Assembly (NCBI RefSeq): GCF_963921235.1
Contig: NC_086097.1
Span: 162,318,001 to 162,382,000 of the forward strand
Length of the DNA: 64,000 nucleotides
Direction: 5' to 3'
DNA from: Mobula hypostoma
Lineage: Eukaryota
The position numbers and the translations under genes are program-made. Positions 49,904-56,042 of the stretch are shown one piece after another. Below the pieces are notes generated by a model, which saw only the letters and a program-made list of their open reading frames with translations, did not search any database and had not been told where the DNA came from. Every line of letters begins with the position of its first letter. Position 1 is the stretch's first letter.

Positions 49904-50096
49904 GCAACATTAATTTCTATTAGTCGTAGATATTTATTTCCGGACTTCCGGTAGCGCTCATGGAGTGAAGTCGCGTTCTTGACTCGCTCCATTACCTCTG
50001 AGTTTTTTTTTCTCTATGGTCAGCTATACTTTAATTAACCATTAAGGCATCAACTCTTACAATACTTTGAATTAAACTGAATTCTCCGACAACTGG

Positions 50097-50996
50097 ATGG
50101 AACTTAGATCTGCTATGTCTAAGAACGAGAAAGACGGCAAGGATGGTAAACCTCCGGTTAAACCGAAAGCTACGGATCTCCCTCCGACTGAATCACCGGT
50201 GACTTTGAAAGCGATATCGGAGTTAATTCAGAGGGAAATTTCAACCTCTGTTAGGGAGATGATTCGTACGGAAATTGCAGGCTTTGTTAAAGACCTGATT
50301 CATACGGAAATCTCAACTAATTTCCAGAAAATTGCCGATTTAATTGATAAGATGCAAACATGTATTGCGGAACATCAGTCGGCTATATCTGATCTTCAAA
50401 AATTCGCGCAACAAAGTGAGCTTAACATGGGGAAAATCGAAGAAACAATTAATGTAATGAAGAAGAAACTTGACTTTTTGACTTTTAAAAACTCTGACTT
50501 GGAATCTAGAATGCGACGGCAGAATTTACGAATGATTGGCGTGAGGGAAGCCGTTGAAGCTAACAACCCCATGAAATATTTCTCCCAACTTTTAAAAGAT
50601 GCATTCCCTACTGTATTTCCTGACCAACCACCGCTACTGGATCGTGTTCACAGAATCCCATCATACTCGTCTAGGTCAGATAGACCTAGGCATGTTATCT
50701 TACGTTTTCATTACTTTCAAGACAAGGAGAGACTGTTTCGATTCGCTCGATCTAAAGGTTTCATTGATTTTTCGGATCTTAAGTTCCGATTCGTGGAAGA
50801 TTTCAGTAAACCAATCTGGGACCAACGGGTCCGTTACAGATCCGTGATGTCGGAATTCTATAAGAGGGATTTAAGACCAGCGCTGCTGTACCCTGCACGT
50901 CTAAGGATTCGCATGTCAGATGGAGCCCTTCGTTTTTTTGATTCTCCATCGGATGCCCAGAGTTATCTGGATCAACTTTCATCTCCAACATCTTAA
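50097..50996 (+). CDS. LINE-1 ORF1p (coiled coil, RRM, CTD)
   Basis: 299 aa open; DLESRMRRQNLRMIGVRE, LDRVHRI, RPRHVILRF and LLYPARLRI motifs typical of L1 ORF1p. Confidence 0.93.
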   Translation: MELRSAMSKNEKDGKDGKPPVKPKATDLPPTESPVTLKAISELIQREISTSVREMIRTEIAGFVKDLIHTEISTNFQKIADLIDKMQTCIAEHQSAISDLQKFAQQSELNMGKIEETINVMKKKLDFLTFKNSDLESRMRRQNLRMIGVREAVEANNPMKYFSQLLKDAFPTVFPDQPPLLDRVHRIPSYSSRSDRPRHVILRFHYFQDKERLFRFARSKGFIDFSDLKFRFVEDFSKPIWDQRVRYRSVMSEFYKRDLRPALLYPARLRIRMSDGALRFFDSPSDAQSYLDQLSSPTS

Positions 50997-51718
50997 TTGC
51001 TTTCTTTTTAATTTTCTCCGTTGATCGGAGGCTGTGAATTGGTTGGTTTTAACTTTTCTGTGCCCTATTTGGGCAGAAAAGTTTACTTTCGATTTCTTAA
51101 TATGGCTACTAAACTTTCTTTTTAACTGCGTCATTTCTTTCTTTTCCCAGGGGATTCTGGGTGGTTACTTCCCTTTTGTCATCTTACGTATTTCCTGTGC
51201 GGCCTTAAATTTTGTAGTTTTTGTTTAAATTTTATTCTGTTTTGCTTTTTATAATCACTTTATGTTAATAATCCTATTTTTTTTGTTGCTGTGTCTATTC
51301 ATGAGTTTGAGGTTTATTGTGGTTTTTTTTTAATATATATTTTCCGGCTTTTGTTCTGTTCTGTGTGTATTCTAATTGAGCTAACTTTTTTTTACTTATT
51401 TTCTTACTGTTTTACAATTAGCTGATCCTTTTCATATTTATACCTTTTTTTTAGGGAGCGTATACCGGAAGTCATGGGGGTAGTTTTAGCGCTTGCTTCT
51501 TTCTGGCGGGTCTGCTTTAGATTTTGCCTTGGGGTCTTGGGCTGGGGGGTGGCGGGAGGGGCTTCACGTTTTAGTTTGTTTTTCTTTGGGCTATATACAT
51601 TATTGAAGTACTGGTTGCGTCCTTTTCCCCGGTATCTTTTGTATGTTCTGTTTCCTCTCCGGGTTTGTGGGTCGCGCCTATCGTCAATCCTCCTTGTTGT
51701 GGGTTGACTTTAGGATTT

Positions 51719-54700: not shown

Positions 54701-55495
54701 TTTGAACAATTATCTAATAAATATAACCTATCAAGAATACATTTTTTTAGATATTTACAAGTTAGAAATTTTCTAAGTACTATACTTCCTTCCTTTCCAA
54801 TGCTTCCTCCTATATATATTTTAGATTCGATAATTAACCTTAATCCATGTCAGAAAGGTGCATCGGCTATGATTTATAATATTATTATGAAACTCAGGAA
54901 AGCTCCATTTGATAAGATTAGGGTAGATTGGGAACAGGAATTGGGGCTTACCATTTCTGTGGATGATTGGGGGCAGATTTTACAATTAGTTAATACTTCC
55001 TCTATTTGTGCTAAACATTCCCTAATTCAATTTAAAGTGGTGCATAGAGCACATATGTCCAAAGATAAGTTAGCGCGTTTTTACTCGCATATTAATCCTT
55101 TCTGTGATAGATGTTCGGGGCAGATAGCCTCTTTAACTCATATGTTTTGGTCTTGCCCTACTTTGGAAACTTTTTGGAGAGATATTTTCAATATTATTTC
55201 TAAGGTATTAAATATAGATATCTCTCCTCACCCTATTACTGCTATCTTTGGACTACCTAAAATTTCTAGTAATCTTTCCCCTTCAGCCCGTAGAATGATT
55301 GCATTTCTTACTTTAATGGCGAAAAGATGTATTTTACAACATTGGAAAGAGCTTAATGCTCCAACTACCTTTTTTTGGTTTTCTCAGACGATTTTATGTT
55401 TGAATCTGGAGAAAATTAGAAGTAACCTTTATGATTCTTCATTTAAATTTGAACAGATTTGGGGACCTTTTATTCGATATTTTCATTTAATGTAA
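51719..55495 (+). CDS. LINE-1 ORF2p (APE endonuclease, reverse transcriptase, CCHC)
   Basis: First ATG at 51719 (MESIINFVSWNTNGL), 1258 aa; LQETH, GGDLN, SRIDY, SDHAP; DAEKAFD, GTRQGCPLSP, YADD; CDRC...HMFWSC. Confidence 0.96.
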   Translation: MESIINFVSWNTNGLNHPIKRKKVFKVFRRLKAQILFLQETHVRRGDRLRFFKFWKGQQFHSNSNAKIRGVSIFIDSSVTFIQQDIISDPNGRFLLVSGLLFNKKVVLVNVYAPNMDCPEFYKSLFDQFPNLNEFSLIWGGDLNTCLSPALDRSAPLRTLPNKSANLINFFLSDSGSTDIWRFLHPQEKDFSFFSHVHHSYSRIDYFFIDSRLIPSVIKCDYDSITISDHAPLKLSIKIMANIPNNRQWRFNSLLLQDSDFVNFMNEQIELFFIINHTEDISVNTLWDTFKAYIRGQIISYSVALRKKQKQEEMAIVDKIKEIDKKYVMAPSEELYKQRTELQMEHSLLLSSSIVNQLKKTRSDFYVHSDKIGKLLANQLKSNYVKSQINQIYNQNDRLILDYVGINQTFCDFYSSLYQSESPRDSKYMNDFLDKLDFPQISQDMSSLLDTSITMDEIKNVIFSMNLGKAPGPDGFTVEFYKCFASLLIPWLYKVFEASLKLGKLPESFNRASISLILKKDKDPAQCASYRPISLLNVDSKVFSKLLANRLEKVLPSIISEDQMGFIKGRYSFYNIRTLLNIVYTPSQNVPECVISLDAEKAFDRVEWPYLFKVLEMFNFSLKFISWIKLLYHSPVASVRTNSLNSPFFPLFRGTRQGCPLSPLLFDIALEPLAIAIRESSNITGITRGLKSHKLSLYADDLLLYISNPERSIPAVLELLAQFGLFSGYKLNLSKSELFPINKHLPLYYKFPFKLINNYLSYLGIKITCKHKDLFKTNFLPLIDHITQLSSKWFPLYLTLIGRINAVKMFFLPKFLYVFQALPIFVPKSFFDKVDSKISSFIWQNKNPRLGKIHLQKAKRDGGLALPNFRFYYWAINIRHMKFWLLDRDILSIPKWVALELQSVQGYTLGSILGSSLPFDSKRLKQVSNPIVKYALRIWFQFRKFFDLNQFGLAIPILGNIFFPPSFTDRDFQTWKTKGILRFLDLFLDGSLMSFEQLSNKYNLSRIHFFRYLQVRNFLSTILPSFPMLPPIYILDSIINLNPCQKGASAMIYNIIMKLRKAPFDKIRVDWEQELGLTISVDDWGQILQLVNTSSICAKHSLIQFKVVHRAHMSKDKLARFYSHINPFCDRCSGQIASLTHMFWSCPTLETFWRDIFNIISKVLNIDISPHPITAIFGLPKISSNLSPSARRMIAFLTLMAKRCILQHWKELNAPTTFFWFSQTILCLNLEKIRSNLYDSSFKFEQIWGPFIRYFHLM

Positions 55496-56042
55496 TATTT
55501 ACCCTTCTTGTTTTTTTTCACTGTTTTAATGGAGGTCGGGATTGAGGACGTGATTTTAAGTTTAACTCTGTTTGGTTTCAAGTTAGCCCATTGCTTTGCT
55601 TTGCTTTTAGTTAGTTGCACGGTGGGTTTTTTTTGGGGTTTTTTTTTTCTTTTTTTCCATTGATATATATAAAATCTAGTATACTATTATGTTATCTTGG
55701 TTTCTTATGCTTAAATTACATTGTTTGTAGTATTTTCTTTTTGGTATTGTTATCTTTTGGAATTTTATTATACTTTAACATTGTATTAATGTTTATATGG
55801 CTTACCTTTTTTGTATACTTACTCAATAAAAAGATTTAAAAAGAAAAAGAAAGAAAGATATTTATTTCCATTCACACGAAAATAGATTCTGATGAAGAGA
55901 CATTAAATTGAAATGTTAACTTGTTTCTACAAATGCTATCTCACCTTTATACTGTTTTCCAATATTTCTTGTCTTTTATTTCTGCAATTTTATAATTGCT
56001 GTAAAAGGGTTTTAATGGCAATTATAATTGGTTTTATCACAG

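Follow-up and report, generated by a model that had tools for sequence, protein, structure and literature searches.

Does a full-length retrotransposon lodged in a core gene of RNA silencing alter the transcripts of that gene, or is it carried along without consequence? This question is raised by a stretch of 64,000 nucleotides of Mobula hypostoma (contig NC_086097.1, positions 162,318,001 to 162,382,000; referred to as the window), in which a full-length LINE-1 (L1) element of 5,914 bp occupies positions 49942-55855, inside intron 8 of AGO2 and in the same orientation as the gene. An initial annotation of this DNA had proposed that L1 might shorten AGO2 transcripts or start new ones. The element is regarded here as probably a tolerated passenger with normal splicing and not a regulator of AGO2. 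Normal splicing is probable because both splice sites of intron 8 and its final 173 nt are left intact by L1.

According to this explanation, a T-rich fish-type L1 from a recently expanded family would have inserted full length in AGO2 intron 8 with a 14-bp duplication, and would since then have been accumulating a few unselected mutations. Most AGO2 pre-mRNA would still be spliced from exon 8 to exon 9, with minor leakage at most.

Structure of the insertion within AGO2

The numbering of exon 9 holds, as exons 1-9 form a single open frame of 381 aa with GT-AG sites. Mapping with white-shark AGO2 (P0069) gave eight exons, 2-9, with identities of 78% for exon 2 and 95-100% for the others, and exon 9 is 98% identical to AGO2 proteins compared with about 90% to AGO1. 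Intron 8 measures 7,508 bp, or 1,580 bp without L1.

The insertion is bounded by an exact 14-bp direct repeat, in agreement with the target-site duplication (TSD) of the initial annotation, and this repeat is the sole common run of at least 9 bp between the compared flanks, with no other copy in the window on either strand. L1 was likewise found to be full length, sense-oriented and young, with its 3' AATAAA on the AGO2 sense strand at 55825, and lies 187 bp from exon 9 (about 190 bp had been claimed). As for the limits first assigned to it, 49942..56042, the start stands but the end has to be moved, since the last base of L1 is 55855 and that of the TSD 55869; the claimed end takes in 173 bp of ordinary intron beyond the TSD. 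Long terminal repeats (LTRs) are absent from the element while the TSD, the 3' AATAAA and an A-rich tail are present, a structure that points, in line with established L1 biology, to insertion by target-primed reverse transcription. The nick on the bottom strand would read TCT/AC, unlike the human L1 nick consensus TTTT/AA, and the opening letters of the TSD agree with the L1 tail. The 5' start of the element, GGACTTCCGGT, agrees with the zebrafish L1 5' consensus GGACTTCCGGTT at 11 of 12 letters (consensus from PMC5381506; this and the other papers cited are represented here by excerpts). The repeat search listed 20 direct families and 25 inverted pairs, none of them a monomer array or a notable hairpin, and the Rfam search returned no match inside L1.

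Contigs of four public runs were aligned to positions 47600-56600: X1 is a DNA run, X9 comes from a related species, and the reading of X5 and X7 as RNA is only a guess. An assembly artefact, with a collapsed or misplaced repeat in this intron, is extremely improbable. Such an error would be compatible with the fact that, among the contigs listed, none spans L1 or its 5' junction, but the two TSD copies match exactly over 14 bp and recur nowhere else in the window, and this L1 has private variants. Moreover, an X1 contig of single-copy depth (10.2) covers 55872-56331 and extends 43 letters farther towards L1, as would be expected if it began at about 55829, within the L1 tail.

Both open reading frames (ORFs) are open and the catalytic motifs are present, as first reported (Table 1). 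ORF1 matches Pfam PF02994 above its cut-off and the structures of human ORF1p (E 3e-16). ORF2 matches PF03372, PF00078 and PF13966, the last one at 26 bits, slightly under its threshold of 27.5, and its residues 4-1231 align with human ORF2p (E 8e-185). All 15 catalytic and zinc-knuckle (CCHC) positions checked hold the residue found in 117-120 of 120 homologues. An ORF2 with APE endonuclease, reverse transcriptase (RT) and C-terminal CCHC, preceded by a type II ORF1, places the element in the vertebrate L1 clade. The Tx1 clade, characterized by a gag-like zinc-knuckle ORF1 and often by a fixed target site, was considered and rejected, ORF1 showing the L1 RNA-binding domain (RBD) family alone and no gag-like zinc-knuckle ORF1 being found.

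Table 1. Positions of the AGO2 exons, the parts of the L1 element and other repeats in the window
Feature	Position	Strand	Description	Basis
Older L1 remnant	97-2200	+	frameshifted; upstream of AGO2 exon 1; T-rich on its sense strand	
AGO2 exon 1 candidate	8770-8791	+	22 nt	CpG-rich stretch
AGO2 exon 2	27953-28142	+		white-shark AGO2 mapping
AGO2 exon 3	30559-30679	+		white-shark AGO2 mapping
AGO2 exon 4	32656-32837	+		white-shark AGO2 mapping
AGO2 exon 5	33931-34067	+		white-shark AGO2 mapping
AGO2 exon 6	42261-42395	+		white-shark AGO2 mapping
Older L1 remnant	44633-45300	-	frameshifted; antisense in AGO2 intron 6; T-rich on its sense strand	
AGO2 exon 7	47851-47938	+		white-shark AGO2 mapping
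AGO2 exon 8	48387..48534	+	148 bp, canonical donor	white-shark AGO2 mapping
Second intron 8 insertion	48540..48657	+	about 102 bp of high-copy repeat with 8-bp duplication	begins 6 nt past exon 8 donor
Left TSD	49928..49941	+	14 bp	exact repeat comparison
L1 5' untranslated region (UTR)	49942..50096	+	155 bp; first letters GGACTTCCGGT	
L1 ORF1	50097..50996	+	299 aa, type II (RBD/RRM-CTD like human ORF1p)	Pfam and structure matches
Inter-ORF spacer	50997..51718	+	722 bp, 48% T; acceptor-like sites at 51151 and 51455	
Inverted copy of L1 5' end	51456..51473	-	17/18 letters, in spacer	shuffles and relatives
L1 ORF2	51719..55495	+	1258 aa; APE endonuclease, reverse transcriptase, CCHC; 39% T, 29% A	
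Candidate cryptic acceptor	55368..55387	+	15/17 pyrimidines; exon from 55388	predicted
L1 3' UTR	55496..55824	+	T-rich (49% T)	
AATAAA and A-rich tail	55825..55855	+	tail short and interrupted	
Right TSD	55856..55869	+	14 bp	
Native end of AGO2 intron 8	55870..56042	+	173 bp, intact AG acceptor (10/17 pyrimidines)	
AGO2 exon 9	56043..56162	+	120 bp, phase 0; codes for the last part of Pfam PAZ and the beginning of L2	

Candidate signals in the element for AGO2 transcripts

The route first proposed, in which polyadenylation within L1 gives a short N-terminal AGO2 and/or read-through from the L1 promoter gives transcripts from exon 9 onward, is judged quite unlikely. Of its mammalian basis, the A-rich sense strand is absent from this element (27% A, 39% T) and AATAAA is at background, but ATTAAA is enriched 2.8-fold. 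Five AATAAA (55825 and four internal) and 13 ATTAAA are found on the L1 sense strand, 16 of these hexamers lying within the ORFs, a number that favours polyadenylation in L1 in being that of the mammalian mean (16.3) and above the fish mean (12.2; both means from the excerpted PMC5381506). The density of AATAAA, on the other hand, is 0.85 per kb in L1 compared with 0.73 in the intron background, with 5 hexamers seen vs 4.2 in 300 shuffles. Furthermore, unless a new acceptor is used, translation past the exon 8 donor terminates two codons on, with the first L1 AATAAA 3.5 kb or more farther downstream. The truncated protein would also not be the clean N-L1-PAZ product expected in the initial annotation, because exon 8 ends at white-shark residue 348, within Pfam PAZ (247-371); a product stopping at exon 8 would have 341 aa and be short of about 23 PAZ residues.

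Regarding transcripts started in L1, the 3' signals of mammalian L1s are weak and often bypassed, and exon 9 lies 218 nt past the AATAAA and contains an in-frame ATG, which would suit read-through. However, two ORFs precede exon 9, and splicing from the single donor-like site checked in ORF1 would not preserve the reading frame into exon 9. Nor does the single-depth X1 contig over 55872-56331 give any indication that the flank or exon 9 was amplified by 3' transduction.

Any effect on AGO2 would more likely arise from cryptic splice acceptors than from plain polyadenylation. Exon 8 would then be joined to an L1 acceptor (e.g. 55388) and the transcript would end at the L1 AATAAA, with a measurable loss of full-length AGO2, an exonisation that is considered unlikely. 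The predicted acceptor at 55388, upstream of exon 9 and with 15/17 pyrimidines vs 10/17, is in frame after AGO2 exon 8 and would join it to the last 35 ORF2 codons, and a second predicted in-frame acceptor is located at 54251, the last exon of which would also be closed by the L1 AATAAA. The product would comprise a last exon of 437 nt, which should escape nonsense-mediated decay, and a protein of 341+35 aa lacking the PAZ end, L2, MID and PIWI. In favour of exonisation, the 39% T sense strand offers polypyrimidine tracts, and human intronic L1s have been described as causing exonisation and cryptic polyadenylation (PMC3192792). Against it, the density of acceptor-like sites in L1 is not clearly above that of other AGO2 intron DNA, with 1.69 vs 1.86 per kb at a threshold of at least 13 pyrimidines and 1.01 vs 0.60 at 14 or more, the score being a rough tally of pyrimidines that takes neither branch points nor enhancers into account. 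A further elaboration, whereby an L1 lineage of reversed strand bias (U-rich, C-poor) would act as a splice-acceptor trap diverting AGO2 into a decay-resistant last exon, with a slicer-less fragment and less silencing as the outcome, is very unlikely.

The view of L1 as a tolerated passenger is favoured by the single open frame of exons 1-9 and by AATAAA and acceptor-like densities near those of other AGO2 intron DNA. As background, the human reference holds 644 sense full-length L1s at most 2 kb from an exon, with chimeric expressed sequence tags for 4.6% of the LINEs in this zone (PMC3088655). Several points nevertheless weigh against it. Normal splicing of exon 8 to exon 9 is itself assumed, ATTAAA reaches 2.2 per kb in L1 vs 0.8 per kb in the remaining gene sequence, a 2.8-fold excess, and ten acceptor-like sites in L1 have 13-16/17 pyrimidines vs 10/17 at the exon 9 acceptor. 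According to the same excerpted source (PMC3088655), sense full-length L1s near exons are depleted in mammals, and five of five mutagenic L1s lie at most 2 kb from an exon, four of them in sense orientation; being full length, sense and at most 2 kb from an exon, the L1 in AGO2 belongs to this gene-disrupting position class. Among the 15 of 362 joints listed, none links exon 8 to exon 9 or to L1 or corresponds to an empty site, and X5 and X7 are without cover in the exon 7 and exon 8 bins, both blanks being uninformative either way.

Family, age and activity of the element

Summed contig depth in X1, which does not equal copy number, rises from 1.1e5 at the L1 5' end to 8.7e5 near the 3' end, whereas single-copy bins have 14-20; a large family consisting mostly of 5'-truncated copies would give such a profile. 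The family is also present in the related species. The prediction that near-identical sequence would occur elsewhere was borne out, the deep X5 contigs showing 0-2 differences per 188-378 bp. Overall, L1 differs from seven deep X5 contigs at 7 positions in 1,689 bp and from seven deep X7 contigs at 32 in 1,877 bp (9/903 for the three located mainly over ORF2), these sums omitting one X5 record outside L1 and one shallow divergent X7 record. For ORF2, the divergence from the dominant contigs of the family amounts to about 0.4-1%. The intron and the contig of the related species differ at 19 positions in 1,430 bp, and because of this divergence the L1 copy, although young, is not brand new, its age being, on these comparisons, of the same order as the split between these species. 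In that species, there is no cover at L1 positions 50087, 50277, 51372 and 51403, the flank contig starts at 55917 and no contig bridges the site.

Among the 24 difference rows listed in L1, 14 have at least 75% of the X1 depth with another letter. Ten of these sites fall in the ORFs, seven being non-synonymous and three synonymous, in agreement with the non-synonymous share of 0.69-0.79 expected without selection. At the protein level, 213 columns are conserved in at least 95% of 120 homologues, and ORF2 deviates at 7 of them, a deviation equally frequent in only 7 of the 120. The deviations at 367, 369 and 619, also found in the nearest relatives, look like family traits, and the remaining ones do not: at 543, 564, 992 and 1202, and also at 760, the common residue is found in all seven closest homologues, except past the end of the shorter P0123. 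The closest relative of L1 likewise deviates at 7 conserved columns, mostly different ones.

The suggestion that the element is possibly active is weakened by the private substitutions and the departures at conserved ORF2 positions; the open ORFs and the catalytic residues speak for it. That this copy is a currently active source element, with the insertion a rare polymorphism, is unlikely. Beyond intact coding capacity, the ratio of observed to expected CpG (0.82 in L1 vs about 0.4 in the flanks) would be consistent with such a source, but at the listed sites 50426, 52255, 52539, 52925, 53996 and 54788 all X5 and X7 depth has another letter, and because of this the dominant L1 sequence of X5 and X7 is not the AGO2 copy. 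In its sequence, L1 resembles a quiescent copy undergoing decay more than a demonstrably active one. This picture is tempered by the sampling of the substitutions, counted from 24 rows among the 40 listed of 348 differences, and by ORF2 residue 1024, where L1 has the residue of most homologues and most other copies differ; some of the differences may have been inherited from a minor lineage rather than have arisen by decay.

The best named ORF2 homologues are L1 proteins of ray-finned fish, with 44-47% identity, and the nearest homologue is the unnamed protein cluster P0123/P0242 (65-66%), equally rich in F, I and Y. In a quick tree, built without Tx1 or mammalian references and serving for the nearest neighbour only, the L1 ORF2 and P0123/P0242 form a sister, long-branched pair. 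LINE-like RT matches of 37-43% identity were also observed in four contigs of a viral collection (L080-L083).

The composition of the sense strand is most pronounced at the 451 four-fold sites of ORF2, with 55% T, 20% A and 11% C. A first metagenome scan with a single ORF2 query gave no match, and an alignment-based scan gave 79 loci, 41 of which have a frame of at least 900 codons; in these 41 related ORF2s, which include several near-duplicates, T amounts to 25-32% overall and 21-38% at four-fold sites. Published vertebrate L1s range from strongly A-biased to A ~ T in the available parts of PMC7140322, PMC9099904 and PMC5381506, fish L1s having on average 33% A and 31% T (PMC7140322). The near equality of A and T on the sense strand described for the fish type, a described and not a defining trait of L1, is accordingly not seen in this element. 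The T bias seems to be a lineage trait, because the nearest protein has the same F/I/Y excess and the two older L1 remains of the window, with 64% (97-2200) and 71% (44633-45300) DNA identity to the young L1, are 35-38% T. As to its cause, C-to-U pressure on RNA is a guess.

The spacer between the ORFs contains an inverted copy of the element's own 5' end, the score of which was equalled in 5 of 300 shuffles. It is possibly a family-specific antisense start site facing AGO2 exon 8, or a product of chance. The motif was not upheld as a conserved antisense start of L1s, the inverted 7-letter core being found in just 1 of 42 relatives (from the 79 metagenome loci, 50 had enough upstream DNA and 42 of these a readable ORF1).

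Other repeats were observed in AGO2. The second insertion of intron 8 leaves the first six intron letters of the exon 8 donor unchanged, and a contig of the related species bridges its site without the insertion. This repeat, presumably Penelope-like, starts in our estimation 1-2 letters from the presumed cut site of the minimal hammerhead of its family, a longer copy being located at 3263-3410; the hammerhead ribozyme core itself is absent from the intron 8 copy. Intron 1 carries two hammerhead-core-like motifs in AGO2 sense orientation, at 17341 and 27473 (+), together with an 80-bp fragment of the 28S rRNA 5' end (12065-12144, +, Rfam RF02543), which may be part of an rRNA-derived short interspersed element. 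A high-copy repeat at 49116-49903 (-), with a LINE-like frame of 224 codons that gave no match in the Pfam search, ends about 25 bp before the L1 TSD and is taken to be probably a CR1-type 3' fragment.

Comparison with known systems

As a precedent for the remodelling of a silencing gene by a retroelement, Dicer-O of mouse oocytes, produced from an MT-C LTR in Dicer, comes closest (excerpts of PMC13399003). In both cases a retroelement resides in a core RNA-silencing gene with a potential truncated isoform. Dicer-O, however, depends on an LTR promoter, is fixed across rodent families and has a proven function, whereas the element in AGO2 is an L1 whose truncated isoform is hypothetical. In the literature searched, no description of a retrotransposon-truncated AGO2 was found.

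With the harmful intronic L1s of mammals, as presented in the excerpted PMC3088655 and PMC3192792, the element shares its full length, sense orientation, distance of less than 2 kb from an exon and proximity to an acceptor. Premature polyadenylation or interference by mammalian L1 has been reported (Han 2004 and Perepelitsa-Belancio 2003, as cited in PMC5381506). The L1 of AGO2 differs from these harmful copies in having no A-rich sense strand and a short 5' UTR, and in that its effect on the host RNA is hypothetical. If AGO2 splicing were diverted, it would represent a natural allele lowering a core microRNA/siRNA effector and would allow a direct test of whether the harm of intronic L1s depends on A-richness or on splice traps. 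If it is tolerated, as is most likely, it would be one of many intronic L1s, of use as a presence/absence marker between close species.

The closest resemblance is to the L1s of zebrafish and other fish, for which the available part of Boissinot and Sookdeo 2016 (PMC5381506) reports a length of about 5.8 kb, a 5' UTR of about 0.16 kb starting GGACTTCCGG, a long T-rich spacer, a T-rich 3' UTR and an AATAAA with A tail. The length of 5.9 kb, the 5' UTR of 155 bp, the spacer of 722 bp and the 5' motif of the present element are all within the zebrafish L1 ranges. Unlike fish L1 and its mean composition quoted above (PMC7140322), the AGO2-intron L1 has a clear T excess, already visible in ORF2 (Table 1). 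Among cartilaginous fish, L1 was also encountered in a 2016 survey of elephant shark and copper shark, which in its excerpted part (PMC5203782) mentions only fragments for Chondrichthyes, whereas here the element is full length with two open ORFs and belongs to a large young family; a 2026 ray-genome preprint, likewise in excerpt, gives L2/CR1/Rex as the main LINEs and leaves L1 unmentioned in that excerpt. Nothing specific on a young chondrichthyan L1 was found in a literature search conducted without Repbase, closed supplements and most subscription journals. Taken together, these comparisons describe a cartilaginous fish with a large, recently active L1 family that has intact copies and an unusually T-rich sense strand, a combination for which no description was met in the literature consulted. 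The AGO2-intron L1 joins the known group of fish-type L1s, to which an intact, young and T-rich chondrichthyan family is a modest addition.

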